This document shows positions 7,926-40,260 of a stretch of 64,000 bases of DNA, in pieces. Below the pieces are notes generated by a model, which saw only the letters and a program-made list of their open reading frames with translations, was not told the DNA's origin and ran no database searches. Positions within the stretch are counted from its first letter, which is position 1. The number at the start of each line of letters is the position of its first letter. A program made the translations under genes and the position numbers. The stretch is from Pseudomonas phage vB_PaePAO1-KEN19: the sequence record PP456878.1; one strand, given 5' to 3'.

Positions 7926-7983
7926 GTTAATTACCTATTACATTGGTTTAAGAATGGTTACAATAAATAACTATTCCAAGTAT

Positions 7984-16756
<8,773 letters not shown>

Positions 16757-16819
16757 TGACGATTAGTAAAGTATCATATCGTTGTTTAACTTAGTATTAC
16801 CAAAATAGGAAAATAGAAA
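16757..16819. promoter_or_regulatory. divergent intergenic region between the giant gene (-) and the RNAP gene (+); contains TTGACG...TATCAT and a TAGTATTACC motif
   Basis: Read directly; promoter identity is inferred only. Confidence 0.3.
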
Positions 16820-18474: not shown

Positions 18475-21400
18475 ATGCGCTTAAATATTACACAGTTTCT
18501 GAAAAATTATAGTGTACGCGAATATGCTAAACTTCAGTCACCTAAGTTGCATGCTCTAAATAAACTTGATCTACCTTTCGAATCCATTTATCAGTTCTTC
18601 GATGGTAATAATGCAGTAATGGGTCCTAGTCAAACAGACCCATTATTCTCCAAACATCAAGGTAAAGTATATATTGAGCATGTTACTGATATGCTTACAT
18701 TTGAAGGTAATCCACGTAGGACTTCAAATATCCCAGCAACAATGATTCAAGAGTTTCGCCGCCAGAACCGTTTCTTTAAACCTTTACGCAGTGATACCGG
18801 TTTTAAATTATCAAACCAGAACATTCTGGTAATGAATTATAATTTAATTAACCCTCAATGGAATTATATGGCTTCTTATAAAGCTACATGGTTCCGTTGG
18901 TCAAATGACATGCGTACATTCTGGAGTGGCGTAGCGGCTGCATGTGAACGTTTTCCTGGTTGGAACCAGTTCATTGATGTACACTTACCTGAGTTAGTTC
19001 CACCTCCTTCTTCTTTTAATAAACTACGAGGGGGTTTAACTCAAGATCTAGCTAATCAATTCAATACACCTGATATTCTAAATATATTTGATTTAGTTCG
19101 CTGGGTTTCTGATGATCGTGAAAGTTCTTTCATGAATGTCATCGATGCTAAGTATTACGGTAACATTAATCTTTTATTCCGTGTACAAAGTTCATTCTTT
19201 GTTATTAACTTAGGGATGCTTGATCAATGGCGTCGTGATCCAGAAATTAAAGATGATAAAGGTTATGATACCCAGCAAATAGCTAGGCGCCTTATTTCAC
19301 TAGTATCAGCGATGGTTGAATATAACCAAGGTAATACTTCATTAATTAAAGAAGATACGCCTATCTTTAATGAAGATATTATTGTTGATGAAGAAACTCC
19401 GGTTAGTTATGAAGAAGGTGAAGCAGAAGAGGTTGAGGATGTTGAGTCTAATAACGTTGAAGAAGAAGTAACTGAAGTTGATGTTATTGATGATGTTCAA
19501 TTTGACCCAACCAACTTAACTAACTTAATTGATATTGGCGCAATTGAGGTAACATATACCCCACCACCAGAAAGTGATCTTGAGGTAACAAAGCTTATCA
19601 TTGAAAAAGATCCACTGGAATCTTCACCTTCTCGCCAAATTAAAGAAGAGAAGGAACTCATTGTAACAGATGTACCAGAAGATGAGTTATTCATCAATAC
19701 TGAAGTTGATGAAGAAGATAAACTAATCGATGCCATTAGAGCTAAAGCATACGACATGTATCGCGTGAATATGATTTCTGCGAATACATTCGAGCAAGCT
19801 CAAGAAGATTCGATTATGTATCGTCGTCTACCTGATCCATTTACCGATCCTAATGATGAATCAGTAGAACCTATGACGATCGCTGAGGCGATGGAATATC
19901 ATCCAGATGATCTTAAGATTCCAGAAGACACCACTTTTGAAGATAAGCCAACCATTGTTGATAAATCAATGTTGGGTAGTAAGTTAAAAGCCATCCAACG
20001 CAAATACAACAAGGTCTTATTAAAGAAAGATATTTTAAACAGTGTGTTATCTGTTCAGAAACAAGGCGTATCAGTAACTAATTACAAAATTGAAACTGTA
20101 CGCGATTCTGGTAACCATTACCAAATCCACAAAGTTACATTAAAGCCTATTCGTGGTAGAAGTTCACAAGTAATGTTCCGTATCCCTGTCATTGATAATG
20201 ACGGTAGGTTCATGTCTAATGGGGTAACATATCGCCAACGTTTACAACGTGCTGATATTCCAATTCGTAAAGTTAATCCACGTAAAGTTGCATTGACCTC
20301 TTATTATAATAAGACCTTTGTGACCAGATCTGAACGTGCTGAAAACAACTTTGATAATTGGTTAATCAGAGCGATTACCAACCGTGCATTAGATGGAAGT
20401 GATATGTCTGTACATTCAGTTACCTATGCTGAATTAGATCAATCCAACTATGTTCTACCAAGGGTGTACACTACTTTAGGAACAGCTTTTAAAGGCTTCC
20501 ATAATCACCGTAATGTGTTCTATTTTAATTTCAAAGATCGTAATGAATTCTTTGCAAAACAAGGATTACATATCGAAGATTATGAAACTGATGATTTGAT
20601 AATGGTGGGGTTCAATGGCACTGATGCTATCTTGTTAGATAAGAATTCCATCTTTTACATGAAAACAGGTAATGAGCTAGAACCTATTGGTACCATTACA
20701 GATATACTTGGCTTAGATCTAACCAAAGCGCCGTTAGAAGCTATTCTAATGTCAATTGGTGGTAAAGAGCTACCATTAGGTTTCATTTTAGCATATCACC
20801 ATGGCTTAAACAATCTACTTAAGAAGTTGAATGTTAATTATCAGCGTCATCAGCGTGGTACCAGGATTGTTGTCAATAGTACGGATTATACATTAGCGTT
20901 CGCTGATGAGATCCTAGTATTTGATCGAGCTGATTATAAAGCAATGCTTGTATTAAGTGGACTCAAACGTTATCATAAATCACTGCGGCGTTATTCTGTT
21001 TATGATTTCAATAAACGAGATGTTTACTTCAGGGTTCTTGAAGAAGCTGGATTAAGTAATAGATTTACACGTGATATTGATACACTCTTCTCAGCATGGG
21101 TCGATCCAATCACTGAGGGTCTACTCAAGGAGATGGGTGAACCAACTACTTTTGAAGGATTGCTTTATCGGTCTGTCGAGTTATTAACGAACGACTGGAG
21201 TCCAGCAGAAGTAGATGGTGCATATATGCGCTATCGTGGTTATGAGCGCATGGCAGGGGCTATTTTTAATGAACTCAATAGAGCGGTACGTGTATTTAAT
21301 ATGCGTAATGGTGGGTCAGTGCAAACTGTCGAGTTAGATCCACACGTGATCTGGCGCAAGATTGTACAAGATCCGACAGTAGCCACTATTGAAGATTCTA

Positions 21401-22830
21401 ACCCCATTGCAAATATCCGTGAACAAGAAGCGATGACTTATCGTGGAGATGGTGGACGCGGTCCAACTTCAATGGTTGCACGTACACGTATTTACGGTGA
21501 AGCGGATGTTGGTGTGGTTAGTGAATCAACTGTGGACTCAGGTGACGTTGGTGTTATTGCTTACTTAGTACCTGATGCTAACTTTGTAAACATGCGTGGT
21601 GTTACGCGTATGTTTGATCCAAAGACAGATGGGCCAGCTAGACTACTCTCAACTAGTGCACTGCTTGGTGTTGCAACCGAACATGATGACCCTAAGCGAA
21701 TTAACTTTATATCAATTCAGCAGCAGCAAGGTATTTATGCTGATGGGTATACAGTTACACCAGTTCGTACAGGCTATGAACAAATCATAGCCCAAAGGAC
21801 TAGTTCTATCTTTGCTGTAGCAGCAGAACAAGATGGTGAAGTTGTAGCTATTGATGAATATGGTATCCAAGTTAAATATGCTGATGGTAATGTATTTGGA
21901 TATCAATTAGGTACAGTTCATGGCACAGCAGCTGGTGTTAACTACCCACACATTCTTGTTACCTCATTAAAGAAAGGTGATAAGTTTAAACGTGGAGATA
22001 CTATCACATATAACAAACGTTATTTCTCTGAAGATAGGTATACGCCTGGGCAAGTATTATGGAAAGCCGGTTGTATGGCTGTTGTAGCATTTGATGATAA
22101 CCTTGACACTTTAGAAGACGGTTCAGTTATTTCTGAAGACCTAGCTAAAAGGTTAAATACTCAAACAACTGCAATCAAGAATATCGATGTTAGGTTTGAT
22201 CAGACTATTCGAGATATGGTGAAAGTTGGGGATCATGTCGACTTAAATTCAATTCTATGTATAATTGAAGATCCTGAAACAGCTGCTCACTCACTATATG
22301 ACGAGGCATCTATTGAGACATTACGCAAACTATCAGCATATTCGCCACGTGCTAAGCTCGTAGGTACAGTATCAAAGATTGAATGCTTCTATCATGGTGA
22401 AATAGACGATATGACACCAAGTTTACAAGCATTAGCTAATACGTCAGATAAACAACGCGCTGAACGAGCTAAATCATTGAAAGAACCTACTTTCACTGGA
22501 CAAGTAGATGCTAACTATCGAGTGAAAGGACGAGCCTTAGAATATGACCACATGATTATTCGAGTGTATATCGATCATGATATCCCATGTGGTGTTGGAG
22601 ATAAAGGCGTAGTAGCTAACCAGATGAAAACGGTATTCTCCCGTGTAATGACTGGACGTAATGAAACTGAAGATGGCCGTAATATTGATCTACTATTCGG
22701 TAATACATCGGTAGAAGAACGAATGGTTCTATCTCCTAAAATCATTGCTACAACAACTGGTATCTTGTGGGCAGCTGGAAAACATCTTGTAGCTGTATAT
22801 AGAGGAAACACTAATGCAAAAGCTAAGTAA
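18475..22830 (+). CDS. multisubunit RNA polymerase beta-like subunit (1451 aa) with a long divergent, highly acidic N-terminal part
   Basis: C-terminal GVGDKGVVANQMK...SVEERMVLSPKII aligns with the beta GDK..GNKGV..PSRMNIGQ region; its start codon lies 3 nt after the previous stop with an AAGGGA SD (translational coupling). Confidence 0.6.
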   Translation: MRLNITQFLKNYSVREYAKLQSPKLHALNKLDLPFESIYQFFDGNNAVMGPSQTDPLFSKHQGKVYIEHVTDMLTFEGNPRRTSNIPATMIQEFRRQNRFFKPLRSDTGFKLSNQNILVMNYNLINPQWNYMASYKATWFRWSNDMRTFWSGVAAACERFPGWNQFIDVHLPELVPPPSSFNKLRGGLTQDLANQFNTPDILNIFDLVRWVSDDRESSFMNVIDAKYYGNINLLFRVQSSFFVINLGMLDQWRRDPEIKDDKGYDTQQIARRLISLVSAMVEYNQGNTSLIKEDTPIFNEDIIVDEETPVSYEEGEAEEVEDVESNNVEEEVTEVDVIDDVQFDPTNLTNLIDIGAIEVTYTPPPESDLEVTKLIIEKDPLESSPSRQIKEEKELIVTDVPEDELFINTEVDEEDKLIDAIRAKAYDMYRVNMISANTFEQAQEDSIMYRRLPDPFTDPNDESVEPMTIAEAMEYHPDDLKIPEDTTFEDKPTIVDKSMLGSKLKAIQRKYNKVLLKKDILNSVLSVQKQGVSVTNYKIETVRDSGNHYQIHKVTLKPIRGRSSQVMFRIPVIDNDGRFMSNGVTYRQRLQRADIPIRKVNPRKVALTSYYNKTFVTRSERAENNFDNWLIRAITNRALDGSDMSVHSVTYAELDQSNYVLPRVYTTLGTAFKGFHNHRNVFYFNFKDRNEFFAKQGLHIEDYETDDLIMVGFNGTDAILLDKNSIFYMKTGNELEPIGTITDILGLDLTKAPLEAILMSIGGKELPLGFILAYHHGLNNLLKKLNVNYQRHQRGTRIVVNSTDYTLAFADEILVFDRADYKAMLVLSGLKRYHKSLRRYSVYDFNKRDVYFRVLEEAGLSNRFTRDIDTLFSAWVDPITEGLLKEMGEPTTFEGLLYRSVELLTNDWSPAEVDGAYMRYRGYERMAGAIFNELNRAVRVFNMRNGGSVQTVELDPHVIWRKIVQDPTVATIEDSNPIANIREQEAMTYRGDGGRGPTSMVARTRIYGEADVGVVSESTVDSGDVGVIAYLVPDANFVNMRGVTRMFDPKTDGPARLLSTSALLGVATEHDDPKRINFISIQQQQGIYADGYTVTPVRTGYEQIIAQRTSSIFAVAAEQDGEVVAIDEYGIQVKYADGNVFGYQLGTVHGTAAGVNYPHILVTSLKKGDKFKRGDTITYNKRYFSEDRYTPGQVLWKAGCMAVVAFDDNLDTLEDGSVISEDLAKRLNTQTTAIKNIDVRFDQTIRDMVKVGDHVDLNSILCIIEDPETAAHSLYDEASIETLRKLSAYSPRAKLVGTVSKIECFYHGEIDDMTPSLQALANTSDKQRAERAKSLKEPTFTGQVDANYRVKGRALEYDHMIIRVYIDHDIPCGVGDKGVVANQMKTVFSRVMTGRNETEDGRNIDLLFGNTSVEERMVLSPKIIATTTGILWAAGKHLVAVYRGNTNAKAK

Positions 22831-23011
22831 TAATGTAGCACATGGTCAGAACATTGCTGTTCTTCATGCTGCTGTTAAACTAGGTACTCAAGCAATTCTA
22901 CAATCGCTTGGTGGCACCACCAGCTCCCCATCTCTGAATGGGGAGTTTTTAACTGAGGCTGATATTGCAGCAGCTTTAAACGCTCGCTTAATGAAGAACC
23001 TCAATATCTAA
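22814..23011 (+). CDS. small hypothetical protein (65 aa)
   Basis: AGGAAA SD 6 nt upstream; overlaps the end of the RNAP gene by 17 nt. Confidence 0.35.
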   Translation: MQKLSNNVAHGQNIAVLHAAVKLGTQAILQSLGGTTSSPSLNGEFLTEADIAAALNARLMKNLNI

Positions 23012-23022
23012 GGAGTGTTAAA

Positions 23023-24582
23023 ATGTTCTGTAAAGAAACCCAAGCTGCGATTGTTGGCTCAGCACGTAGTCTAACTGAGGATAACCTTGTTCTAGTTATC
23101 CCTAATGAAACATATCCCCTTGCGGTCTTTGCAGATGGTTTCAGTGTAGATGGCAACTCTAATAAAGTTGCCCTCTCTGAAGAGCTGGAAGCATCTGTAG
23201 AAGAGTTCTTCGAGGAAGCTAACCAAGAGCAACCTGTTAGTGTAGAAGAAGAGCAAGAAGCTCTGATTGCACATGTCTGCTCATCATTACAAAAGATCCA
23301 ATTCAATACGCAGAATGTTATTTGCCCTGCAATTGAATATATGGTACGTGTTTTTAATGAGCGTCAAAGCATTAGTTGTCAACCAGATGTAAGCGCTACA
23401 TTCTACCACTATAATGCAGTTCATAGTGATCCACGCTTAACTGCACACGTTAGTACACGATACAATAATTTACAGCCGCTACCTGAGTATCGTACCTTTA
23501 TTCTAGAATCAATTGATGCTAATGAAATTATTCGGTTAGTGTCAATGGGTAATCCGCATCTAGATCAAACTGAAGTTGAAGAATGGCTACTATCTATTCC
23601 TAATAGTGCCGCTGTTATTGAAGGTGTGTGGAATTCTATCTTCAATGATGGTCGTCTTCTCATTCCAGGTGAACTTGAATATGTTGTGGGTAGGTCCTTC
23701 CCATTCACTGTTGATTCACTAGCTCTGGCTTACATGATTTGCGGTCACTACATCGATAACCCGGTTGAAGTTATTGGCGAGAGTGATGTTGACCTAGAAA
23801 CATGGTCACTAACTATTCGTAAACTACATGAGATGTTTGGATTCTATCTCAAGCGTGCTTATGAACGTCGTCAAGCTGATCGTGATGCAGGTCTACTCAT
23901 CCTAGCCTCAGAAGCTAATAATGTAGTTGCTAATTCTCGTTGCAAAGTAATCATTAATGGTGATGTTGCACCTCAATTTGAATTAGCCGGTGGTGACATC
24001 CAAGCTATCCTTGGTGCAGCTGTAGCAGGTAGTAATAACATTTACCTAGAACAGATTCTTAATAACTCAGAACAGTTTATTCAACGTTGGCTATCAGTAT
24101 ATCCGCTGATTAAACAATCGGCTATGGATAAAGGTTTACGTAAACTACGCAATGACATTCATGAATCATTTATGGATGGTGTCATTAATACTGAACTTAA
24201 AGATCGCCATGTTAATGAACTCGAATATCGTATTAAAGAAGCAATGAGTACGATGACGACTGAAGATCTTAAGAATCCTTATATCACCTTTGGTAAACTT
24301 ATCTGTAAAACATTCTTTACAGAAAATGTTTACTGGCAATATCTGCTAGCAGTTGATGAATTTAGTCAAATGTATCCTGAGGCCACTCTACGTGAACTCA
24401 ATACACAATCACTAATTTCACTAATGGCAGCATGGCTGTCTCAACAGATTAAAGTTGAGCGGTTCACTGGTGTTGTTGATCCTTATGCAAAACTACCAGT
24501 AAAAGAAGTTATTGAAACTGTAGAAGATGATAGCACTGAAACTTTAGATGATGTTGAAATCGAAGAAGAAGTTTCTAATTAA
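23023..24582 (+). CDS. hypothetical protein (519 aa) with an acidic C-terminal tail
   Basis: AAGGAG SD; C-terminus EDDSTETLDDVEIEEEVSN. Confidence 0.55.
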   Translation: MFCKETQAAIVGSARSLTEDNLVLVIPNETYPLAVFADGFSVDGNSNKVALSEELEASVEEFFEEANQEQPVSVEEEQEALIAHVCSSLQKIQFNTQNVICPAIEYMVRVFNERQSISCQPDVSATFYHYNAVHSDPRLTAHVSTRYNNLQPLPEYRTFILESIDANEIIRLVSMGNPHLDQTEVEEWLLSIPNSAAVIEGVWNSIFNDGRLLIPGELEYVVGRSFPFTVDSLALAYMICGHYIDNPVEVIGESDVDLETWSLTIRKLHEMFGFYLKRAYERRQADRDAGLLILASEANNVVANSRCKVIINGDVAPQFELAGGDIQAILGAAVAGSNNIYLEQILNNSEQFIQRWLSVYPLIKQSAMDKGLRKLRNDIHESFMDGVINTELKDRHVNELEYRIKEAMSTMTTEDLKNPYITFGKLICKTFFTENVYWQYLLAVDEFSQMYPEATLRELNTQSLISLMAAWLSQQIKVERFTGVVDPYAKLPVKEVIETVEDDSTETLDDVEIEEEVSN

Positions 24583-24629
24583 ATTATCTTAATGGTTAAT
24601 AATCATTAAAACATGCAATCGATGATAAA

Positions 24630-24655
24630 CTCCGGTATTTGGAAGGATACCGGAG
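24630..24655 (+). terminator. hairpin CTCCGGTAT-TTGGAAGG-ATACCGGAG after the 519-aa gene
   Basis: Read directly. Confidence 0.45.
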
Positions 24656-24729
24656 TAATACAGCGAATATTTAAAGGTGCATGATTTTGATTAAGTATTT
24701 TAATCTTTACATAAATGAACAATTAGGAC

Positions 24730-25458
24730 ATGATAATGGACGTACGTTCTCTTCGACGGGATCCAGAACGGGTCCACAGTCATCTAACTGATTTAGAAGA
24801 TAATTCAGTAGTAACTAATGCCCCATGTAAAATACAGATTCCAGAAAGATTTACAGGAAGACATCTAGCTGTTATTGGTAGTGAAGTATTCACTATTGGT
24901 ATATTTCCTATTATTTTTAATGATGAATATTACGCAGTAAATAATACTATTGCAATGATGCGGATAAATCCAATCTCTACTGAACGCGTCCACATCAATG
25001 GTGAAGTTTATCTAGAATTTCATTTTGATAAAGGTAGTAAGATTTTCCAGAATACTTACTTAGTTGTTAATGATACATTAACTTACTATGTCTATGATGA
25101 GTTAATTAACAAAGGAAACTTCCCTTGGTATATTAACTATTATGACAAAGCCAAATTATTTGAGACAGCTAATTTACACGCTGGTGTTAACCTTGGTGGA
25201 TGGCCTACATTACAACTTATTATTTCAACCACTCAGCGTGCCTCGGATGATATATCACAACTATATCGACATGTGTTAACTAGACACAGTGATATCGTGG
25301 ATAATCCACCAGTCGACGTACCATTCCGTTCAGTTATCTGGAATACTTCAGACACAACATCAAAACTCAATGGGGCTTATTTTGATCAAGGTATCACATC
25401 AGCACTTGTTAACCCATCTGAGTCAGTAGAGCTTATTGAAGAACTCCTCAGGACCTAA
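24730..25458 (+). CDS. hypothetical protein (242 aa)
   Basis: ORF track. Confidence 0.5.
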   Translation: MIMDVRSLRRDPERVHSHLTDLEDNSVVTNAPCKIQIPERFTGRHLAVIGSEVFTIGIFPIIFNDEYYAVNNTIAMMRINPISTERVHINGEVYLEFHFDKGSKIFQNTYLVVNDTLTYYVYDELINKGNFPWYINYYDKAKLFETANLHAGVNLGGWPTLQLIISTTQRASDDISQLYRHVLTRHSDIVDNPPVDVPFRSVIWNTSDTTSKLNGAYFDQGITSALVNPSESVELIEELLRT

Positions 25459-25469
25459 GGAGTTGCGTT

Positions 25470-26282
25470 ATGCAACCATATTCTAATTTTTCTGGTTTGC
25501 AACAGCGTACTAATAACCAAGTAGTTATCGGCAGTGATATGTTAGCCGGTACTAATAAAAAAGGTGTATTAGTACCTGATGCGGATGGTTACTATCTAAC
25601 TCCACTAGGAGCTTATGGTACCCGAAATTCAGCTGGTATGTTCTATGAAATGGCATCCGGCGTATCTATGTTTAATCCAGACTCACCTTTAATGCGCCGT
25701 GTTAAAAAGGGTGTTCTATTCATGGAATACAAACACCCTGAACCCTATCGTAAAGATGGCACACGGATGAATGAACATGAGTACCTAATGCGAATTCGTC
25801 AAATCGATGATGATCGTGTGTGTGCGCATATTAAGGAACTTATTCTGGTTGATTCTACAGATGAGAAAGGTCTTCCTATTAAACTAGTACTTGGCAAATG
25901 CAAACCATACGGTCCTTTTGGTAAGTACTTCGAAGCATCTATTACCAATCCTTCTCAGAATACTTATTGCTCGGTAAGGTCAATAACTCAAGATGATCCT
26001 ATGCGCGGTATCAAATATACCCGTGAGATTTCAACTTGGGATATGGTCGGGGAAGGTGGTATTTATGGTGCTAATAAATGGAATTCTCCTGCATTAGAGA
26101 ACTATGAAGATCAATTAATGGTTATCACGCCTGATACTCTATATCAGGTACAGCGTGAACGTGAACGTCAAATTAACATGGGTTTTGAATGTTCTGATAT
26201 CACCAATGTGACAGATCTAGCGAAAAGTCTTGGCTGGGATATTTCACCAGTTAAACATAGGCGCCCTGGCTTCATGCGTTAA
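25470..26282 (+). CDS. hypothetical protein (270 aa)
   Basis: AAGGAG SD; ORF track. Confidence 0.5.
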   Translation: MQPYSNFSGLQQRTNNQVVIGSDMLAGTNKKGVLVPDADGYYLTPLGAYGTRNSAGMFYEMASGVSMFNPDSPLMRRVKKGVLFMEYKHPEPYRKDGTRMNEHEYLMRIRQIDDDRVCAHIKELILVDSTDEKGLPIKLVLGKCKPYGPFGKYFEASITNPSQNTYCSVRSITQDDPMRGIKYTREISTWDMVGEGGIYGANKWNSPALENYEDQLMVITPDTLYQVQRERERQINMGFECSDITNVTDLAKSLGWDISPVKHRRPGFMR

Positions 26283-26301
26283 AAATAAAAAAAGACATAA
26301 T

Positions 26302-26322
26302 GCCCTCCCGTAATGGGAGGGC
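26302..26322. terminator. terminator between convergent genes: GCCCTCCC-GTAAT-GGGAGGGC with a U-tract on the minus strand
   Basis: Minus strand: stem followed by ATTATGTCTTTTTTTATTTTT; plus strand: stem followed by TTATGCTGT. Confidence 0.65.
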
Positions 26323-26330
26323 TTATGCTG

Positions 26331-27467
<1,137 letters not shown>

Positions 27468-27477
27468 TTAAAAACTA

Positions 27478-28452
27478 CTATTTTTTATAAGCAATAAATT
27501 TTCCAATATGCTTGAATCCCTTACAACTAATAGTAACTTTAATCGGATATTTAGCCTTCATTACATAAATTAACCTGGACATATTAAACGGCGCATAAAG
27601 TATAAAATCATTATCTACCATTTCTTTATGGAATGCATTAATCTTATCTTGGACTAGTTTAATATAATCCTCATCATTAATAATACTTTGTTTATCTGAA
27701 ATAACAATCTTATCTACAGTATCGCCTTCAGCACATAGTCTTTCATATACCTCAGTACGGATAAATGTATTAACTGCGATATATGTATTTTCTGTTACTT
27801 GTGTAGCTTGTGCACTATAAATATCACTAATACAGTAATTAGGTTTATATGGACCAAATGGATCAATAATATCTTTAATAGATACACTCTTTTTTGGTAG
27901 AACATGGGGTGTTTCTAAAAATGAAACACTGTCATGTGCATCAATATCTAAATACTTATTGACTAGTGGGGCAACGCGGTTGAATGCCTCTTCATAGATA
28001 GCATACATGTAGCCACGGTAATCTGGTAAAGACGCATAATAATTACGCTGAACAACAGTCTCGCAACTACTAACATAATTATAAAAAATATCTGCGTGCC
28101 TTAAAACATTATTAAATTCATCTACGCCTAGAATTGAACTAATCCAACTAACATCATTATCGTGGATAAATATAGCTAAACGAAGGTTTTGCCGTTTTGG
28201 ATTAGTTTCATCTTGGAATGGATATGTTGTATATAGCTCAGTGATAGCTTGTTTAACTACATCAGGTGATTCATTGAAAAATTCTTTTGAGAATTGATCA
28301 ATTGACATATTTTGTCTTTGCTGATATAGTTCATTAATACGTGCTTCTACTTGCACAAGGAAGTTAATCTTTTTACTGATTTTAAGGCTATGTTCAGTAT
28401 GCATTAAGTTATCTCTGTTTGATTGATTTAATAACATCACAAACAATTTCAA
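27478..28452 (-). CDS. hypothetical protein (324 aa; start may be the downstream Met at 28404)
   Basis: ORF track. Confidence 0.5.
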   Translation of the reverse strand: MKLFVMLLNQSNRDNLMHTEHSLKISKKINFLVQVEARINELYQQRQNMSIDQFSKEFFNESPDVVKQAITELYTTYPFQDETNPKRQNLRLAIFIHDNDVSWISSILGVDEFNNVLRHADIFYNYVSSCETVVQRNYYASLPDYRGYMYAIYEEAFNRVAPLVNKYLDIDAHDSVSFLETPHVLPKKSVSIKDIIDPFGPYKPNYCISDIYSAQATQVTENTYIAVNTFIRTEVYERLCAEGDTVDKIVISDKQSIINDEDYIKLVQDKINAFHKEMVDNDFILYAPFNMSRLIYVMKAKYPIKVTISCKGFKHIGKFIAYKK

Positions 28453-28849
28453 ACCATTCTTTTTCTTGAATGGTTAGGTTTGCTCCTGATAAAACTAATG
28501 GACCAAAACTTTTTGCTTTAAATAAAACGAATGGTCGACTATTAAGATTTAATAATAGGGTATCACGAAGGATATTGGTAAGTCCATCTACGTATTGATA
28601 CTTTAAACCATAGTCTAATTTATAATGGGAATTAACCTCTGGTTGAAGAAAAGCCTTTTCTTTTTTACCAGTGATGAGATACATCCGAAGACCTTTGAAT
28701 GAAAAGAAATTCTCATTATCAAGTGTGGTCTTCTTCTCTTTTCCATTAAACTGAAATAGATCAGGAAGCGGTGTATTACCGCTCTGATCTACAATGATGC
28801 TATCTACAGGATAATTATTTTGTACCCATGGGGTTTCTGGATTATTCAT
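28409..28849 (-). CDS. hypothetical protein (about 146 aa; start moved to MNNPETPW)
   Basis: The ATG at 28849 gives an 8-nt ATGAATAA overlap with the upstream gene stop; the longer ORF-track start would overlap by 59 nt. Confidence 0.45.
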   Translation of the reverse strand: MNNPETPWVQNNYPVDSIIVDQSGNTPLPDLFQFNGKEKKTTLDNENFFSFKGLRMYLITGKKEKAFLQPEVNSHYKLDYGLKYQYVDGLTNILRDTLLLNLNSRPFVLFKAKSFGPLVLSGANLTIQEKEWFEIVCDVIKSIKQR

Positions 28850-29603
28850 TTGAATTAGGCTCCACCCAATGAGGATCAGGTACAGGAACAATATGCACAC
28901 TGTCCTCTAGTTTATCTCGAAGATTAGGATCATCAGTCCATTGTAGAGAAAGAGTGTATCTCTCCTCTTTAGGCCGTAGTAGTAGGAATCCACGTCTTAA
29001 TGTATTCCAAGACATATTGGGCGATAGTAAACCACGCCTTTGTGTATTAGCCAATGAGGTAAGTTTCTTTTTATCCAATCCTACAAGGTTGACTGGATTA
29101 TTTAAAAACTCTTCCCATAGCTTATCCCACTTCTCCTGGTTAATTCCTTCTTTCCAGAGAATATGCCTATACAGATGGGCCATTGTAGTTGTAGCTGGTT
29201 TTTGATTCTTAAAAATTTCACATTCTTCATAGGGGAAATCATTTGCAGAGCAAGTTACCTCATCTTCAGTTGGATCGATATTGATCGTATAAACTGAATC
29301 AGGTTTTGATGTACCCCAAATCAGACGTACCTCTAATGTTGCTTTAACAGGTGATAAGAAATCAATAGCTTTCTTAAAGCCATCCCAACTCATTGTATCA
29401 GCTTTAAGTGCTTTATTAAGATTACCTTTATCTGGGTTATTCTTGTTATGTGGTTTTTGAAAGTATGCATTCAAACGTTTATCCCAAGCAAACTGTGTCA
29501 TATTACGCCACAGTAGTACTTCCCGGAAAACATAACACAAAACCCCTTCTGCCTGCCTTAATCCTTTTTGAGGATCGCTTAATAAGTCTTTTACAGATTC
29601 CAT
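28842..29603 (-). CDS. hypothetical basic protein (253 aa)
   Basis: ORF track. Confidence 0.5.
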   Translation of the reverse strand: MESVKDLLSDPQKGLRQAEGVLCYVFREVLLWRNMTQFAWDKRLNAYFQKPHNKNNPDKGNLNKALKADTMSWDGFKKAIDFLSPVKATLEVRLIWGTSKPDSVYTINIDPTEDEVTCSANDFPYEECEIFKNQKPATTTMAHLYRHILWKEGINQEKWDKLWEEFLNNPVNLVGLDKKKLTSLANTQRRGLLSPNMSWNTLRRGFLLLRPKEERYTLSLQWTDDPNLRDKLEDSVHIVPVPDPHWVEPNSNE

Positions 29604-29673
29604 CTTTTTTACACCTACGGTGAATTGATAATAAACACACTTTATATTAATTTATACTTGTATAGTCTGCACC

Positions 29674-30198
29674 TCATAGTAACTTAATAATTGCTCTTGA
29701 TAGTTCAATAATATCATAGTACATTCTATCCATCTGGCGCTGATATGCTTGATGGTTAATCTGTTCAAGATATTCAGTTTGTTGCCAAATTAAGTCACGC
29801 ATAGTTTCAATAGATTTACATACATCAATAAAACTATCATTACTGTTTATAAAATATTCATCAAGGTCAATTGATTTCCTGTCGATAAACTCAGTACGAC
29901 ACATTTCACTAATCTTTAGATCATCTTCATTTGCAATATGATCATTTAACCTAGTTAGAGCATCTAATAAATAACCAATACTGTAATGTCTTAGATAGAC
30001 AGGAACACCTATCATCTTCCTGATGGTCAGAGTTTTTAATTCATCCAGATTAATTAATTGCCAGAAATTATTAATAGCTTTTAATCGTTCTTCACCTGAA
30101 ATAATATCTTTATCTATCCGTTCTAATTCAGTTAGAAGTTGTTCTTTACCAACTTCCTTTTGGAAGCCCCGGAAATATTGAATAAGTTTCTTAAACAT
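29674..30198 (-). CDS. hypothetical protein (174 aa)
   Basis: ORF track. Confidence 0.5.
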   Translation of the reverse strand: MFKKLIQYFRGFQKEVGKEQLLTELERIDKDIISGEERLKAINNFWQLINLDELKTLTIRKMIGVPVYLRHYSIGYLLDALTRLNDHIANEDDLKISEMCRTEFIDRKSIDLDEYFINSNDSFIDVCKSIETMRDLIWQQTEYLEQINHQAYQRQMDRMYYDIIELSRAIIKLL

Positions 30199-30277
30199 GA
30201 TATAGGACCTATTTTTCAGATACTTAGCATATGGTAAGTATGTTAGGTATTACTATTACTAATTAGAGGATAATAAA

Positions 30278-30793
30278 ATGTTCCATGGTGCAGATTTATC
30301 TGATGAGCCTTTAGAAAAGAAATCATCAACTACAGAAGAAAAGGTATATGCTGATCTAGAATATGAGCAGCAGATACGGTATACACAATCAGTTAAAGAG
30401 AAAGTACTAAAAGCTGTATTAGAAAATACAACTGGTAAAGTACCTACTGATAAAGAATCAGTTGATATGATTCTTAAATTAACAGATTCAATGGATAAGA
30501 CAACAATTGCTAACCGTCGTATTCAAGTTGATTCTGAGGGTGCACGCTCTAACCGTGAACTTGCTGAAGGCTTTGCTGAATTCGTTAAGATGCAAATGAA
30601 CCGTAATCCATTAATACGTGATCCGAATGATGTCCCTGTAACACCACGTGAGATTCCAGATATTCCTGATGAGGAATTTGAGAATTACACTATTGAAGAA
30701 GGTGAAACTGAAATCGGTATCATCATGGAGGAATCCAATGCATTTATGGAGCGGATGGATGCTGCACGAGAAAAAGAATTAGAAAACGATTGA
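30278..30793 (+). CDS. hypothetical acidic protein (171 aa)
   Basis: GAGGA SD; upstream GGTATTACTATTAC motif; acidic composition. Confidence 0.5.
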   Translation: MFHGADLSDEPLEKKSSTTEEKVYADLEYEQQIRYTQSVKEKVLKAVLENTTGKVPTDKESVDMILKLTDSMDKTTIANRRIQVDSEGARSNRELAEGFAEFVKMQMNRNPLIRDPNDVPVTPREIPDIPDEEFENYTIEEGETEIGIIMEESNAFMERMDAAREKELEND

Positions 30794-30808
30794 TATTAAC
30801 GACATATA

Positions 30809-30829
30809 GCCCTCCCGTAATGGGAGGGC
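30809..30829. terminator. terminator between convergent genes: GCCCTCCC-GTAAT-GGGAGGGC
   Basis: Same hairpin family as 26302 and 36771. Confidence 0.55.
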
Positions 30830-30838
30830 GTTATGCAC

Positions 30839-31537
30839 TTAATACAAATCGATATCTAATACATCACCAACTGTATTTACGATTACTTCAACAGGTGGTA
30901 GCTCAATATTACCAATTGATTTCTTAATAACATTCATTTGGTTAATAACTTGATTATGATCAGATGTTACTTTAAGAGCTAATAGTCCAATAGCAGTTAA
31001 ACTTACGATTGCAGTTGAGTTATCTGAAATAGTTTCATATGCAGCTTTACCTACTTTCTTAATAGTTTTAAATAGAGTAGGTTTATTTTGACGAATTAGT
31101 TTTCGTTCTTTTGCTTTAGCTAGCTCATCATCAAATTCTTTATTAAAGCTACGGCGTTTACTCCAATCATAAACACCTGGTGAAACTTCTTCAAAATTGG
31201 AAGAGATTGCACCAAAATCACTAGCATGGCTAAACATCCATTTAAAGATAAAGCGATTAGAAAGAACCCACGCCTGTAGATTAGTTTCTGCATCGTTGAT
31301 TAGTTTAATAGCATCGCTTCCAGTAGCCACTTGGCCATTAGCTTTAACAAATAAAATCAGTCTTACAGTAGTACCATTGATTACTGTGTTATTCACATTT
31401 GCAATCCTGGTATAAATTTCTTTAATAATTCGCTTTTGTTTATCTAAATCAGCACCATTTAAACGAATATTAAATTGACGGTCTAATACGGCCATTGCAG
31501 TTTCCTCTAGGGTTATTGTACCTAAAGTATACTGCAT
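30839..31537 (-). CDS. hypothetical protein (232 aa)
   Basis: ORF track. Confidence 0.5.
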   Translation of the reverse strand: MQYTLGTITLEETAMAVLDRQFNIRLNGADLDKQKRIIKEIYTRIANVNNTVINGTTVRLILFVKANGQVATGSDAIKLINDAETNLQAWVLSNRFIFKWMFSHASDFGAISSNFEEVSPGVYDWSKRRSFNKEFDDELAKAKERKLIRQNKPTLFKTIKKVGKAAYETISDNSTAIVSLTAIGLLALKVTSDHNQVINQMNVIKKSIGNIELPPVEVIVNTVGDVLDIDLY

Positions 31538-31544
31538 GACCGTA

Positions 31545-31973
31545 TTATTTTAATTTTTTACATGCTTTATAAAACCGTGTACCAACGTACAAAATAAACC
31601 CGCCAATAACAGCAACTGATGTGATTGTTTCCAGCGGCATGCGCTTAGCGGGTTCTTCAATTGGTACTGTAACAGCTGGTAATTCAATTCTTTTCTCAAT
31701 AACTTTTTTACCAGTTAACTTATAATAAACATCTGGTTCTAATGTTATCGATTCAAGAATCTGATTACTACATGGATAGCGTGTGACGCCTCCATGTCCA
31801 TCTGCAACATAGAAGCTGAATGTATCGCCTACACGATGTAAGTCAACCACACTACCCATATATGTCATATGAGCTGGATAGAGTTCTGCCTTGACCTTTC
31901 CATCGTTGAATAAGTCAATGACGGAACTCTTCTTTAGCTCACCCATTAAGTTTGCTAAAGTGAATGCCGCCAT
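31545..31973 (-). CDS. hypothetical protein with a C-terminal transmembrane anchor (142 aa)
   Basis: C-terminus ITSVAVIGGFILYVGTRFYKACKKLK. Confidence 0.45.
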   Translation of the reverse strand: MAAFTLANLMGELKKSSVIDLFNDGKVKAELYPAHMTYMGSVVDLHRVGDTFSFYVADGHGGVTRYPCSNQILESITLEPDVYYKLTGKKVIEKRIELPAVTVPIEEPAKRMPLETITSVAVIGGFILYVGTRFYKACKKLK

Positions 31974-31991
31974 TAGCGATAACCCTATTAT

Positions 31992-32198
31992 TTAATCGAC
32001 TTGTTGAGCACTATCATCAATATCGATTTTATCTAGCTCATCAGTTAGAATATCTACTTCACTGTCTAGTACCGTATCATCATCAGCTACGGTGTCATCA
32101 ATAACGGTTGATTTAGAAACGGCCTTATATAGATTAATAGCGGCAACAGCGAGGGCACCAGTTGAGATAATTGCAGCTGCGATCTTTAGTACTTTCAT
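31992..32198 (-). CDS. small membrane protein (68 aa) with a poly-acidic C-terminal tail
   Basis: N-terminal TM segment KIAAAIISTGALAVAAINLY, then a D/E-rich tail. Confidence 0.4.
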   Translation of the reverse strand: MKVLKIAAAIISTGALAVAAINLYKAVSKSTVIDDTVADDDTVLDSEVDILTDELDKIDIDDSAQQVD

Positions 32199-32307
32199 TT
32201 TCTATTTTCCTAATCATTAAGTTTTAATAAGTATCCAATATAGATACATGTCTGTAATATAGATCTTAAACTTTTTTTAGTGTAATAAAAAAATTAATGC
32301 GATATAA

Positions 32308-32329
32308 ACCCCCTCCCGAAGGAGAGGGT
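32308..32329 (-). terminator. terminator ACCCCCTCC-CGAA-GGAGAGGGT (UUCG loop on the minus strand) followed by UUUAUAUCGCAUUAAUUUUUUU
   Basis: 3' of gene 32340-32735; same 3' flank as the hairpin at 6896. Confidence 0.6.
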
Positions 32330-32339
32330 AATATGTATA

Positions 32340-32735
32340 TCAGTATTCCATCGAAGTTAATACTCGATAATGATCTAATAGTAAATCAATAACAGAGTAA
32401 AAAGAATCACAGTTGAATTGCGTATCTATATTTGCAGATACTCCAGTAATACGATTGATAATATGGAGACACTTAATATCTCCACCACGTTGTCTGATAA
32501 AAACAACTGCCCACACTGGCCACGTACTATCTGGTGTGGTGTCTTGAATAACTAATCTGTAATACCCATCATTTACTGTTTCAATGGATGCTTGGATTGG
32601 ATCATCTGTATAAGCCGATTCTACTTGAACATATTGATCATTATAATAAAACATTTCCTTAATAAGTTTAGCACAGGCATGTAATGTCTCCATTACCTTA
32701 GCTGAACTATTTGGATTATATTGTTGATTAAACAT
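32340..32735 (-). CDS. hypothetical protein (131 aa)
   Basis: ORF track. Confidence 0.5.
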   Translation of the reverse strand: MFNQQYNPNSSAKVMETLHACAKLIKEMFYYNDQYVQVESAYTDDPIQASIETVNDGYYRLVIQDTTPDSTWPVWAVVFIRQRGGDIKCLHIINRITGVSANIDTQFNCDSFYSVIDLLLDHYRVLTSMEY

Positions 32736-32826
32736 GTCATTAACCTCTTAAGATATTGTATGCATAGTAGTAATATATATCTTAATTATTTTTTAGTGTA
32801 GTTGTGAAAACTTAGAGGAATATACG

Positions 32827-33003
32827 ATGCCTAGTAAAAGTAAAAAACAACATAACTTCATGGCTGCTGTAGCCAATGATAAGAAGTTTGCTAAGAAAGT
32901 TGGTGTACCACAATCAGTTGGTAAAGACTTTGTTGAGGCTGATAAAAATAAAAAGAGTTTTGAAAGTGTTTCACTTAATAGCACTTATAAAGATAGTTAC
33001 TAA
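32827..33003 (+). CDS. unannotated small Lys-rich protein (58 aa), DUF3008-like
   Basis: Absent from the ORF track (<60 aa); AGAGGAA SD 7 nt upstream; translation MPSKSKKQHNFMAAVANDKKFAKKVGVPQSVGKDFVEADKNKKSFESVSLNSTYKDSY; terminator hairpin immediately downstream; the N-terminal MPxKSKxQ...FAKK.G.P pattern resembles DUF3008 from memory. Confidence 0.5.
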   Translation: MPSKSKKQHNFMAAVANDKKFAKKVGVPQSVGKDFVEADKNKKSFESVSLNSTYKDSY

Positions 33004-33009
33004 TATAAT

Positions 33010-33030
33010 GCCCTCCCATTGCGGGAGGGC
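33010..33030 (+). terminator. hairpin GCCCTCCC-ATTGC-GGGAGGGC followed by TTATGTTGCTTATAATTATTTT
   Basis: Read directly; serves the small plus gene and, on the minus strand, the gene at 33046. Confidence 0.55.
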
Positions 33031-33045
33031 TTATGTTGCTTATAA

Positions 33046-35538: not shown

Positions 35539-35587
35539 GATTAACCCTTAATAATGTCTTACTCTATAGAGTTAATAACCCTAGTAA

Positions 35588-36760
<1,173 letters not shown>

Positions 36761-36770
36761 AGAACATAAT

Positions 36771-36791
36771 GCCCTCCCACTATGGGAGGGC
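36771..36791. terminator. terminator between convergent genes: GCCCTCCC-ACTAT-GGGAGGGC followed by TTATGCTGTTA
   Basis: Same family as 26302. Confidence 0.55.
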
Positions 36792-36799
36792 TTATGCTG

Positions 36800-37987: not shown

Positions 37988-37996
37988 TATGTTTAC

Positions 37997-39565: not shown

Positions 39566-39600
39566 TTTAAAACTCCGGAGTATTAAAGTTCATAAGGTTG

Positions 39601-40260
<660 letters not shown>

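Follow-up and report, generated by a model that had tools for sequence, protein, structure and literature searches.

The repeated GC-rich hairpins of the window, which is the whole stretch of 64,000 nucleotides of Pseudomonas phage vB_PaePAO1-KEN19 that was analysed, are very probably hairpin-dependent, intrinsic-type transcription terminators with which a phiKZ-like jumbo phage closes its transcription units at the 3' side. The family is the published terminator motif of phiKZ and is therefore real and already known; with the rediscovery of this motif no new element is added.

Most of the window is 99.2% identical to phiKZ (96.2% and 88.7% in its other two segments), the window plus strand being the phiKZ minus strand. 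Differences between the hairpins and their phiKZ counterparts are restricted to the loop and to individual bases of the flanks. With ONT-cappable-seq, 133 termination sites were found in phiKZ, including six bidirectional terminators, and 61 of the 133 share the motif BCCYCCCCHWWDGGGRRGGBYTTATKYYGT (Putzeys et al. 2024, microLife). This is the same element as in the window, a GC stem-loop followed by YTTATKYYGT, in essentially the same phage, and there is no essential difference between them; 18 of the 19 window hairpins correspond to numbered sites of that study (T063-T090). The terminator-prediction program ARNold, which these authors applied, classed less than half of their sites as intrinsic, and the 'TTAT region' was described as acting 'at the RNA level' (Putzeys et al. 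2024). In the text of that paper we found no discussion of the mirrored 5' CATAA, of the strand specificity of YYGT, of the pyrimidine-G position of the 3' ends or of the identity of TATG with the late-promoter core, the word TATG being absent.

Occurrence and genomic placement of the hairpins

By a generic scan for hairpins (perfect stem of at least 6 bp with at least 5 G/C, loop of 3-8) the window has 19 where Markov shuffles give about 1.7, and the whole phiKZ genome has 118 where shuffles give 2-7. The first-pass annotation, made from the letters alone, had listed 13 positions for the family, and a GC-rich hairpin is present at every one of them. A pattern search of the kind that it proposed gave five exact matches to GCCCTCC-N3-8-GGAGGGC in the window (0.00 in 100 shuffles) and six to the shorter CCCTCC..GGAGGG. 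Copies at 5588, 22924, 24629, 37791, 51572, 54872 and 58979 were added by the generic scan. The published 30-nt motif itself has six window sites at three or fewer mismatches, with none expected, and the remaining copies have the same architecture with other stems or another spacing (Table 1).

Table 1 Hairpins in the window, their flanks and the corresponding published phiKZ sites
Position	Strand	Hairpin	Location	Flanks and tail	phiKZ counterpart and 3' ends
3804-3826	-	AGAGUCCCC-loop-GGGGACUCU (relaxed copy)	3' of gp189 orthologue	tail UCUUUAUAAUUUUUUU	TTS T090 (202344)
5588-5608	-	CAGTGGG..CCCACTG (extra; non-GCCCTCCC type)	3' of gp186 orthologue	U-run tail	TTS T089 (200561)
6896-6913	-	GCCUCCC-UUCG-GGGAGGC (class a)	3' of gp184 orthologue	tail UUUAUAUCGUAUUAAAAAAAA; early-promoter core TTGAGATTTATATTAC at 6858-6873	TTS T088 (199193); early TSS P099 (199232)
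10001-10024	-	GGAGCCUCCC-UAUU-GGGAGGUUCC (relaxed copy)	3' of gp181 orthologue	tail UUAUUUUGU	TTS T087 (196087); different stems at orthologous PhiPA3 and 201phi2-1 sites
24629-24656	+	ACTCCGGTAT..ATACCGGAGT (extra)	3' of gp177 orthologue	no TTAT tail on transcribed strand	TTS T084 (179971)
26302-26322	.	GCCCTCCC-GTAAT-GGGAGGGC (index hairpin)	between convergent gp175 (+) and gp174 (-) orthologues	ACATAAT 26295-26301; TTATGCTGT 26323-26331; TCA 26331-26333 is gp174 stop codon; extended stem -22.9/-23.3 kcal/mol, z -4.6/-6.2	178309-178329; longest TU133/134 reads end at 178301/178304, +5 and +8 nt past stem (window + strand); called TTS T083 is 23 nt upstream, at A-run
30809-30829	.	identical to 26302 copy	between convergent gp169 (+) and gp168 (-) orthologues	ACATATA and GTTATGCAC	173802-173822; TTS T081 (173797, window + strand), 5 nt past stem
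32308-32329	-	ACCCUCUCC-UUCG-GGAGGGGGU (class a)	3' of gp166 orthologue	tail UUUAUAUCGCAUUAAUUUUUUU; early-promoter core TTAAGATCTATATTAC at 32254-32269	TTS T078 (172327); early TSS P091 (172385)
33010-33030	.	GCCCTCCC-ATTGC-GGGAGGGC	between convergent gp165.1 (+) and gp165 (-) orthologues	3' flank TTATGTTGC	TTS T077 (171597, window + strand), 4 nt past stem
36771-36791	.	GCCCTCCC-ACTAT-GGGAGGGC	between convergent gp163.1 (+) and gp163 (-) orthologues	+ strand TTATGCTGTTA; - strand ATTATGTTC	TTS T076 (167868, window - strand), 8 nt past stem
37791-37815	-	GC hairpin	within gp163-orthologue CDS	no flank motif	TTS T075 (166843), 3 nt past stem
42181-42202	-	AGAGAGGG-CCTTTG-CCCTCTCT (relaxed copy)	3' of gp157 orthologue	- strand tail TTATATTAA	TTS T074 (162450)
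46391-46412	.	GCCCTCTCC-loop-GGAGAGGGC	between convergent gp154 (+) and gp153 (-) orthologues	+ strand TTATGCTGT; - strand ATTATGTCGT	experimentally bidirectional: T070 (158210) and T071 (158242)
51572-51598	+	ATAGAAAGCCC-TAATA-GGGCTTTCTAT (neighbour of 51667 copy)	ends convergent gp147 orthologue	TATG inside stem end, then GCTTTTTTT	TTS T068 (153024)
51667-51686	-	UUCG-tetraloop copy	3' of gp146 orthologue	- strand tail TTTATTTTGT	TTS T067 (152963), 6 nt past stem
54872-54887	-	CCCGGT..ACCGGG (short GC hairpin)	within gp146-orthologue CDS	no flank motif	TTS T066 (149761)
57451-57470	-	GAGAGUCC-UUCG-GGACUCUC	3' of endolysin gp144/gp144.1 orthologues	tail TTATGTTGTTAAAA	TTS T065 (147179), 6 nt past stem
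58979-59003	-	AGCCTTCCT..AGGAAGGCT	3' of gp142 orthologue	tail TTTATAATGCTATG; second TATG (58965-58968) is orthologue of late promoter P075	TTS T064 (145649); TSS P075 (145659)
61682-61701	-	TCCCCTC-CACATG-GAGGGGA	between co-directional gp138 and gp139 orthologues	TTTATGCTGTTA on + strand, antisense to genes; transcribed - strand TAA-CAGCAUAAA-hairpin-AACUCUUAC	TTS T063 (142947) on gene strand, 6 nt past stem, despite no TTAT there; transcription unit from promoter P074 reads through

The identical stems GCCCTCCC..GGGAGGGC at five window sites, and the imperfect palindromy of the DNA over the entire element, would also fit elements without a role in transcription, either copies of a mobile palindromic repeat of the REP type or binding sites of a dimeric protein. 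Such a nature is hardly credible in view of the placement of the copies, which lie almost only at gene 3' ends (in phiKZ 102 of the 118 are intergenic and a single one lies between divergent genes), and of their occurrence at orthologous positions in the phages PhiPA3 and 201phi2-1 with compensatory stem changes; scattered, non-orthologous insertions of near-identical copies, as expected of REP- or MITE-like elements, were not found. The spacing between the flank motifs varies with stems of 5-11 bp and loops of 3-8 nt, unlike in a fixed dimer site, RNA 3' ends map at the hairpins, and a scan of the whole window against Rfam 15 gave no match at or above the gathering threshold.

Architecture of the flanks

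Genome-wide, the hairpins are embedded in the pattern ..CATAA-(stem-loop)-TTAT(G/T)YYGT. In the window, TTAT starts 0-4 nt from the stem in 58% of the flanks and TATG in 37%, with backgrounds of 4% and 2%, and in phiKZ 65% of the transcribed-strand flanks carry TTAT, against 4% in the background. On the transcribed strand TTAT is followed by K, Y (86-90%), Y, G (47-58%) and T (66-81%). This K-Y-Y-G-T extension occurs on transcribed strands only, the antisense flank having no more than 0.4 bit per position. Conservation beyond the stem, which the first-pass annotation had noted, thus holds genome-wide and, as described below, across genera.

The two classes of copies distinguished in that annotation have ordinary explanations, namely convergent transcription for one, and a terminator tail followed by an early promoter for the other. 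Copies with the motif on either side (class b) lie as a rule between convergent genes, as had been stated; the copy at 61683, located between co-directional genes, does not follow the rule. At the convergent sites the hairpin with TTATGYYGT is read on both strands because both are transcribed into it: the TTATGCTG of one strand appears on the opposite strand, reverse-complemented, as CAGCATAA, an upstream CAGCAUAA is in the same way the 3' motif of the opposite strand in reverse complement, and the TTA or TCA after the motif is the stop codon of the neighbouring gene. For the UUCG-loop copies (class a), an identical 3' flank of 23 nt had been reported at 6896 and 32308, of which only the 15 nt UUUAUAUCG(U/C)AUUAA are actually common, the first site continuing with A8 and the second with U7. 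This long flank consists of the terminator tail and then the AT-rich phiKZ early promoter TT.AGAT.TATATTAC, the promoters being orthologues of the published P099 and P091; it is shared because in early-gene arrays the next early promoter follows directly after the UUCG hairpin and its UUUAU(A/U)UCG tail.

With canonical Rho-independent terminators, including the bidirectional ones with A-tract/U-tract symmetry, the family shares the GC hairpin, the U-rich tail, the complementary A-rich 5' flank, the location behind genes and RNA ends that lie shortly beyond the stem; a GC-rich stem-loop is indeed found directly 3' of genes. The window family differs in that a fixed UUAU with K-Y-Y-G-U takes the place of a run of 7-9 U, and in that the polymerases met during infection are the non-canonical multisubunit enzymes of the phage. 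An uninterrupted U-rich tract of about 7-9 nt after the stem was not found, the typical tail being UUAUG or UUAUU; only 21% of the transcribed flanks (5% at convergent sites) have TTTT within 9 nt, so that the canonical U-tract is absent. Since the tails are not T-runs, a simple terminator scan stayed near expectation, with 13 sites against 10.1 in 20 kb. A scan for sigma-70 promoters gave 61 matches against 84 expected.

The flanks are also palindromic. The 5' CATAA(T) pairs with the 3' (T)TTATG, which lengthens the RNA stem to 13-15 bp (-22 to -24 kcal/mol). However, own and swapped 3' flanks add equal stability to the stem (p = 0.09), no site-wise covariation is significant, and the 5' and 3' motifs co-occur independently (p = 0.2 and 0.8), so that flank pairing is not supported as the selected feature. 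A mini-ORF starting at the ATG of the tail was considered and dropped, as was the 5' ATAA as stop codon of the upstream gene, most stops being more than 4 nt away.

Transcript 3' ends at the hairpins

Positions of termination sites (TTS; T001-T118, Table S4) and transcription starts (TSS; P001-002 and P008-P126) were taken from the bioRxiv supplement, of which positions only were used, some rows being displaced (for example the P040/P041 sequences), and were compared with the phiKZ hairpins up to 262.8 kb. A TTS adjoins the stem at 68 of 107 phiKZ hairpins, and 75 of the 118 TTS lie at such a hairpin. Most ends are found 5-8 nt beyond the stem, with a mode at +5/+6. When these ends, measured in phiKZ, are transferred to the window, a listed TTS or the ends of reads fall 2-11 nt beyond the stem at 18 of its 19 hairpins, in agreement with the terminator-like character proposed in the first-pass annotation. 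That annotation had named two outcomes that would speak against it, flanks that are not conserved genome-wide and a lack of transcript 3' ends at the hairpins; with conserved flanks and 3' ends at the hairpins, neither was observed.

Each of the 73 ends that were compared is at a pyrimidine, and 22 of them are followed by G, against 11.8 expected (p = 1.5e-4), the end then lying between TTAT and G or between TTATGYY and G. In 30 cases the next base is A, probably because poly(A) tailing before mapping hides terminal A residues. At the resolution of the data, the ends track neither the stem nor the G of TATG more tightly (sd 1.9 and 2.1 nt).

Ends are also found at hairpins without TTAT on the transcribed strand (61682/T063, phiKZ 115946/T054 and the in-gene copies 37791/T075 and 54872/T066), and some of them could therefore reflect trimming by a 3' exonuclease to a stable stem instead of termination. 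In its general form this would mean that transcription reads through and that the elements mainly serve RNA 3'-end stability or processing, a hairpin extended by CAUAA/UUAUG protecting the mRNA against 3'-5' exonucleases. The extension of the stem to 13-15 bp, which buries the 3' tail, the 3' ends 3-9 nt past hairpins that have no U-rich tail, including in-gene hairpins, and the presence of the 5' CAUAA on RNAs whose 3' tail has no G to pair with it are in line with such a role. As the main function it is nevertheless improbable. The strand-specific YYGT lies beyond most mapped 3' ends and so cannot act within the final RNA, and the flanks are without site-wise covariation. Moreover, the published TTS criterion demands a drop in read coverage across the site (Putzeys et al. 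2024), and cloned members of the family from 201phi2-1 lower downstream reporter expression, which is a read-out of termination.

Possible mechanism of termination

The element is a GC-rich stem-loop, free to vary in sequence provided that pairing holds, followed on the transcribed strand by a short U-rich tract in the fixed form UUAU and then by K-Y-Y-G-U. For hairpin-dependent termination the following course of events can be proposed. The nascent RNA would fold into the hairpin with the polymerase positioned on a weak, rU:dA-rich hybrid. The terminating polymerase would be the phage's own multisubunit enzyme, since phiKZ transcription proceeds without the host enzyme. The two conserved G residues would provide the pyrimidine-then-G positions where multisubunit polymerases tend to pause, and this pause would make up for the short U tract. 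The 5' (C)AUAA mirrors the 3' flank and can pair with UUAU(G), so that the DNA reads hairpin and TTAT on both strands; on the RNA, pairing of CAUAA with the 3' tail would leave a nearly blunt, exonuclease-resistant 3' end.

Pausing signals of other polymerases offer some parallels. The consensus elemental pause of multisubunit RNA polymerases is G-10 Y-1 G+1, and sigma-dependent pausing occurs on non-template -10-like elements. The mapped 3' ends on a pyrimidine, with G as next base above chance, resemble the former, and in analogy with the latter a promoter-recognition pocket could re-read its own motif during elongation; both resemblances derive from the sequence and from 3'-end positions with a resolution of about 2 nt. 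The class II pause and termination signal of T7 RNA polymerase, ATCTGTT, may be a further parallel, in that termination by a phage enzyme is aided by a short conserved sequence of the non-template strand, placed downstream of a hairpin or in its stead, and TTATGCTGTT loosely resembles it. The T7 polymerase has a single subunit and needs no hairpin at this signal, whereas in the window family the hairpin is always present.

A possible role of TATG in transcription

The TATG in the tail is identical to the necessary core of phiKZ late promoters, and two roles can be considered. The first-pass annotation mentioned a late-promoter-like motif driving antisense RNA, that is, a start at the foot of the hairpin from which antisense or downstream transcripts are launched. 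Two late TSS indeed lie shortly past a terminator stem, P049 (+11) and P075 (+15; window 58965-58968). They use a second TATG further downstream (TTATGCTATG and TTTATAATGCTATG, respectively) and give sense transcripts, and no published TSS is located within 10 nt of any of the 107 hairpin edges on either strand. The antisense-promoter idea is thus unsupported, and we regard it as very improbable. The context of TATG in late promoters is a different one, with A at -7, T at -6 and YYGT missing downstream; the flanks of the hairpins do contain TATG, without this A and T and without a published start at its G. Only four antisense RNAs whose start is defined have been reported for the whole of phiKZ.

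Alternatively, the 3' TATG(YYG) might be a DNA signal that is recaptured during elongation by the beta-lobe pocket of gp123 in the non-virion RNA polymerase (nvRNAP), causing a pause between UAU and G and release, so that hairpin and TATG together constitute the terminator. We consider this possible but on the whole unlikely. According to a structural paper, gp123 binds non-template 5'-TATG-3' at late promoters, with G as +1, and published mutagenesis has shown that all four bases are needed for initiation. The mapped ends between TTAT and G correspond to this promoter register. TATG starts 0-4 nt past the stem in 41% of the transcribed flanks and at 75% of the convergent late-gene sites, against 2.3% in the background. 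It is rarer in the genome than expected (2650 against 3701), and for 44% of the TATGYYGT occurrences there is a hairpin within 5 nt. TTATG is also commoner after virion and late genes (17/30 against 27/94, p = 0.008, with a crude split of virion versus other genes), TATG tails without a U-run are found in the relative Xoo-sp14, and the tail in Goslar is TTTATGCCGT. On the other hand, the base after TTAT is variable on co-directional transcribed strands (G 36%, T 38%, A 26%), the 3' ends do not follow G more closely than the stem, and the class of the nearest upstream promoter, a proxy for the arriving polymerase, does not separate G from non-G tails. Members of the family from 201phi2-1 stop transcription by the host polymerase in a reporter assay, and a phage-specific reader is thus not required. 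The literature searched contained neither in vitro termination data for the virion polymerase (vRNAP) or nvRNAP nor any biochemistry of pausing or termination by nvRNAP.

Conservation in related phages

About 44 kb of each relative was sampled. At the orthologous sites of PhiPA3 and 201phi2-1 the hairpin is kept with different stems (GCCCTCCC, GCCCTCTCC and GCCAGTCC), and GCATAA..TTTATGTCGT is kept around it. Covarying stems and retained flanks in these two phages suggest that the hairpin structure is under selection. In Xoo-sp14, with 58% GC, each of the five hairpins at gene ends of the locus has (C)TATG(C/A)CGT in its flank and no U-run; TATG is present in 16% of its flanks, against 0.5% in the background, and TTAT in only 2%. 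The Goslar flank is the one given above. An AR9-like outgroup gave no GC hairpins by the criterion of the generic scan, and SPN3US and an Elvirus gave weak signals only; these three results neither support nor weaken the case.

Functional evidence comes from 201phi2-1, in vivo and with the host polymerase. A study of this phage (Microb Biotechnol 2024) described a motif A that strongly resembles the phiKZ motif and a motif B that elongates the stem. The orthologous sites have the form GCATAA-(stem-CGAA-stem)-TTTATGTCGT, and cloned examples terminate in vivo. In the published terminator-trap assay the orthologue of the 36771 copy (41736-41756 of the sampled locus, TTS 179552) equalled the lambda T0 control, and this orthologue and a same-family hairpin from the syntenic locus (TTS 183876) performed in vivo at least as well as lambda T0. 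The phage belongs to another genus (Serwervirus) and has a higher-GC genome and other stem sequences than the window.

Implications

How two non-canonical phage RNA polymerases, which have neither alpha nor omega subunits and use a 4-base promoter, terminate transcription is the point that is still worth knowing. The tail deserves attention in this respect, being a fixed, strand-specific sequence that lies partly beyond the RNA 3' end and that survives in a high-GC relative without a U-run. A tentative and rather doubtful proposal is that the polymerase reads the conserved tail as a DNA signal, which would not be a degenerate U-tract and would take over part of its role, with the late-promoter TATG 1-3 nt past the hairpin as pause-and-release site and a second stop between pyrimidine and G at YYG, and that it has been kept across the Chimalliviridae from 37% to 58% GC (phiKZ, PhiPA3, 201phi2-1, Xoo-sp14 and Goslar). 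The T-rich variant with UUCG loops (UUUAUUUCG) may be a candidate signal for the virion polymerase on early genes. If TATG is a polymerase-read stop, the mirrored CATA would halt antisense transcription by nvRNAP at every unit boundary. The use of the same TATG as start and stop signal would, if true, be a compact arrangement and an unusual one among multisubunit polymerases, and it could yield portable terminators that are specific for jumbo-phage transcription inside the phage nucleus.

Terminator hairpins and transcript ends

A GC-rich hairpin is present at every position at which the first-pass annotation had placed one, and the strict pattern that it derived occurs five times in the window and not in shuffled sequences. 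A generic scan for perfect stems, which misses imperfect ones such as that at 32308 (entered by hand), gave 19 for the window, where about 1.7 would be expected, and 118 against 2–7 expected in the whole phiKZ genome. The latter lie mostly between co-directional (66 + 14) or convergent genes (22); a single one separates divergent genes, and 15 are intragenic. The family is the already published terminator of the phiKZ group. Putzeys et al. (microLife 2024) mapped 133 phiKZ termination sites by ONT-cappable-seq, and the motif they described has six matching sites in the window where none is expected; the study of 201phi2-1 found this motif again, together with a second one that lengthens the stem.

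The maps of termination (T numbers) and start sites (P numbers) are those of phiKZ, not vB_PaePAO1-KEN19, and resolve ends to about 2 nt. Positions were moved to the window from preprint supplementary tables, used in part and after conversion from PDF, which had shifted some rows. This transfer is safe since the hairpins of the two phages are the same except for loop bases or single bases of the flanks.

Hairpins and early-promoter cores of the window with the phiKZ sites assigned to them, from the part of the published tables used
Feature	Position	Strand	Published phiKZ site
Hairpin	3804		T090
Hairpin	5588		T089
Hairpin	6896		T088
Hairpin	10005		T087
Hairpin	24629		T084
Hairpin	30809		T081
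Hairpin	32308		T078
Hairpin	33010		T077
Hairpin	36771		T076
Hairpin	37791		T075
Hairpin	42181		T074
Hairpin	46391	both	T070, T071
Hairpin	51572		T068
Hairpin	51667		T067
Hairpin	54872		T066
Hairpin	57451		T065
Hairpin	58979		T064
Hairpin	61682		T063
Early-promoter core	6858-6873	-	P099
Early-promoter core	32254-32269	-	P091
Early-promoter core	32770-32785	-	P089

Transcripts do end at these structures: in the table portion covering phiKZ 1-262.8 kb, a termination site lies beside the stem at 68 of 107 hairpins, and 75 of 118 sites are located at such a hairpin, with an offset mode of +5/+6. At hairpin 26302 the longest published reads stop 5 and 8 nt beyond the stem. The listed site T083 (phiKZ 178352; window 26283-26296, plus strand) falls in the A-run AAAAATAAAAAAA where gp175 has its stop codon, 23 nt upstream of this hairpin; it resembles a product of internal oligo(dT) priming or of trimming at the A-run, not a true 3' end. 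Hairpins lacking the flank motif also occur within the coding sequences of the gp163, gp146 and gp177.1 orthologues (37791-37815, 54872-54887 and 22924-22945, respectively). The first two coincide with listed 3' ends, and such in-gene hairpins with 3' ends represent either internal attenuation or exonuclease stops.

Direction of the conserved flanks

The proposed conservation of the flanks holds, also genome-wide, with three details corrected: the flank common to 6896 and 32308 is 15 nt long instead of 23, the neighbours of 61683 are co-directional and not convergent, and the flanks form a palindrome, CATAA..TTATG, by which the RNA stem reaches 13–15 bp (-22 to -24 kcal/mol). When motif starts 0–4 nt from the stem are counted, TTAT is found on 65% of transcribed and 51% of antisense strands (background 4%), and TATG on 41% (75% at convergent sites) and 29% (background 2.3%). 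In flanks anchored on TTAT, the extension K-Y-Y-G-T follows on transcribed strands only, with G at the eighth position in 47–58% and T at the ninth in 66–81%, against at most 0.4 bit per position on the antisense side. Thus, the 3' extension is a directional signal, of which the 5' CATAA is merely the short mirror. Two co-directional sites (phiKZ 115946-115965 and window 61682-61701) carry the full TTATGYTGTTAA motif antisense to the genes, with listed 3' ends (T054, T063) on the gene strand, which is without TTAT.

The division into two classes, UUCG-loop copies read on the minus strand (a) and GTAAT-type loops between convergent genes (b), has ordinary causes, namely convergent genes and neighbouring early promoters. 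Class (b) has the full motif on each strand because both strands are transcribed; the CAGCAUAA noted ahead of the stem, after the stop codon, is TTATGCTG read from the opposite strand, and the neighbouring gene contributes the TTA or TCA after it as its stop codon. Class (a) represents the form of the element at early genes, marked by a UUCG loop and a UUUAU(A/U)UCG tail; the other shared flank bases belong to the early promoter that comes next, whose core (TT.AGAT.TATATTAC) has three exact matches in the window against 0.33 expected.

The suggestion that the TATG flank is a late promoter for antisense RNA is not supported by the start sites: in the table portion used, no hairpin has one within 10 nt of its edges, whichever the strand, and the closest, P049 (+11) and P075 (+15), start at a second TATG and give sense transcripts. 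The surroundings of late promoters are different as well: position -7 is A, position -6 is T, and YYGT does not follow. At P049 and P075 the tail reads TTAT(G/A)..GCTATG, with the listed late start at the second TATG, 11–15 nt past the stem (window 58965-58968, minus strand; phiKZ 145655-145658 and 94326-94329); they are closely packed terminator-promoter pairs.

Conservation in related phages

In PhiPA3 and 201phi2-1 the hairpin is kept, with different, compensating stems, at three convergent and one co-directional orthologous sites. At the three convergent sites GCATAA..(T)TTATG(T/C)CGT is kept too, so the flanks are there more conserved than the stems. Within about 44 kb sampled per phage, TATG occurs in 45% of flanks in PhiPA3 (background 1.2%), 37% in 201phi2-1 (1.4%), 20% in Goslar (1.1%) and 16% in Xoo-sp14 (0.5%), a phage of 58% GC in which just 2% of flanks have TTAT and 5/5 gene-end hairpins resemble GCCCCTCCC-CTTATGCCGT or GCCCCTCCC-TCTATGACGT, without a U-run. 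In samples of the same size, the signal was weak in SPN3US and an Elvirus, and an AR9-like phage gave no GC hairpins by the perfect-stem criterion. The Goslar locus compared (L009) has one annotated terminator in the stretch (24342-24367), followed by GTTTATTTCGCT, which is the T-rich tail TTTATTTCG of phiKZ early-type terminators. Both tail variants thus appear conserved as far as this E. coli phage.

Likely mechanism of termination

The hairpin is under structural selection and its tail is strand-specific; the mapped part of the data shows 3' ends 2–11 nt beyond the stem. In vivo, related elements act as terminators. Most likely, the driving element of termination would be the hairpin, acting on a UUAU hybrid that is short and weak, with possible help from pausing. 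All 73 mapped 3' ends examined from the tables fall on a pyrimidine. In 30 of them the next templated base is A, which can be explained by trimming of poly(A) tails, as the poly(A) tailing used in mapping conceals terminal A residues, and in 22 it is G, against 11.8 expected (permutation p = 1.5e-4). In TATG-type tails the 3' ends come after TTAT or TTATGYY, immediately before each conserved G, and two tested 201phi2-1 sites in the compared locus end after TTTATGCC and TTTATGAC, also before G. In multisubunit polymerases, Y(-1)G(+1) is the signature of the elemental pause, and by this analogy the ends between pyrimidine and G can be read as that signature.

A secondary role of the hairpins in RNA stability or processing is possible: flank pairing buries the 3' tail, and listed 3' ends also occur at hairpins without any TTAT, some in genes (T063, T054, T066, T075). 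However, YYGT is located past most mapped 3' ends, and cloned 201phi2-1 relatives matched or exceeded lambda T0 in lowering the expression of a downstream reporter; among them are the 36771 orthologue (TTS 179552) and, from the syntenic locus, a hairpin of this family (TTS 183876).

Relation of the phage to phiKZ

Among Pseudomonas jumbo-phage records, 46 share at least 95% identity with a 10-kb piece of the window, phiKZ among them at 99.8%, and the vRNAP (virion RNA polymerase) beta protein is identical (100%) to that of phage PA7. Aligned to the full phiKZ genome, window 18287-64000 corresponds to 186345-140624 at 99.2% identity, 6383-18287 has 96.2% and 5-6369 has 88.7%, all three segments in opposite orientation (window plus is phiKZ minus). 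The left end (1-6369), with 24 gap openings, is less similar than most of the remainder, which indicates mosaic divergence inside the phiKZ species group. At junction 18287, within ORF 16820-18472 (+), the window lacks phiKZ 186346-187787 (1.44 kb, with the gp179 endonuclease gene), and the gp180 orthologue is an unbroken 550-aa ORF. The listed T086 (186346) and P096 (187788) sit exactly at both ends of this extra segment, as expected for spliced intron ends and not for a genuine terminator and promoter. Sigma-70-like promoter matches in window 20001-40000 are fewer than in shuffles (61 vs 84 ± 10), which suits a phage that transcribes without the host polymerase.

The tail as a possible stop signal

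A structural study found that a pocket in the beta-lobe of gp123, a subunit of the non-virion RNA polymerase (nvRNAP), binds non-template TATG with G as +1; according to mutagenesis, initiation requires every base of TATG. The TATG located 1–3 nt past the hairpin might present this late-promoter motif to elongating nvRNAP in the same register, a predicted stop signal that we consider rather unlikely. TTATG is commoner after virion or late genes (17/30 vs 27/94, p = 0.008), 44% of TATGYYGT occurrences are at hairpins despite genome-wide depletion of TATG, and the high-GC Xoo-sp14 retains TATG and loses the U-run. On the other hand, the G of the tail is variable, the listed 3' ends follow it no better than the stem, relatives of the element halt the host polymerase, and the motifs on the two sides are independent, without covariation, which fits two separate strand-specific signals as well as no pairing constraint. 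On both strands of the whole phiKZ genome (L001-L006), TATG occurs 2650 times where a first-order Markov model expects ~3700 (3701), and TTAT is near expectation. The string TATG is absent from both ONT papers (phiKZ, 201phi2-1), and the literature searched gave no paper connecting the terminator tail with the late-promoter TATG. The interest of the phiKZ-family terminator here rests solely on the role of its fixed-sequence tail.
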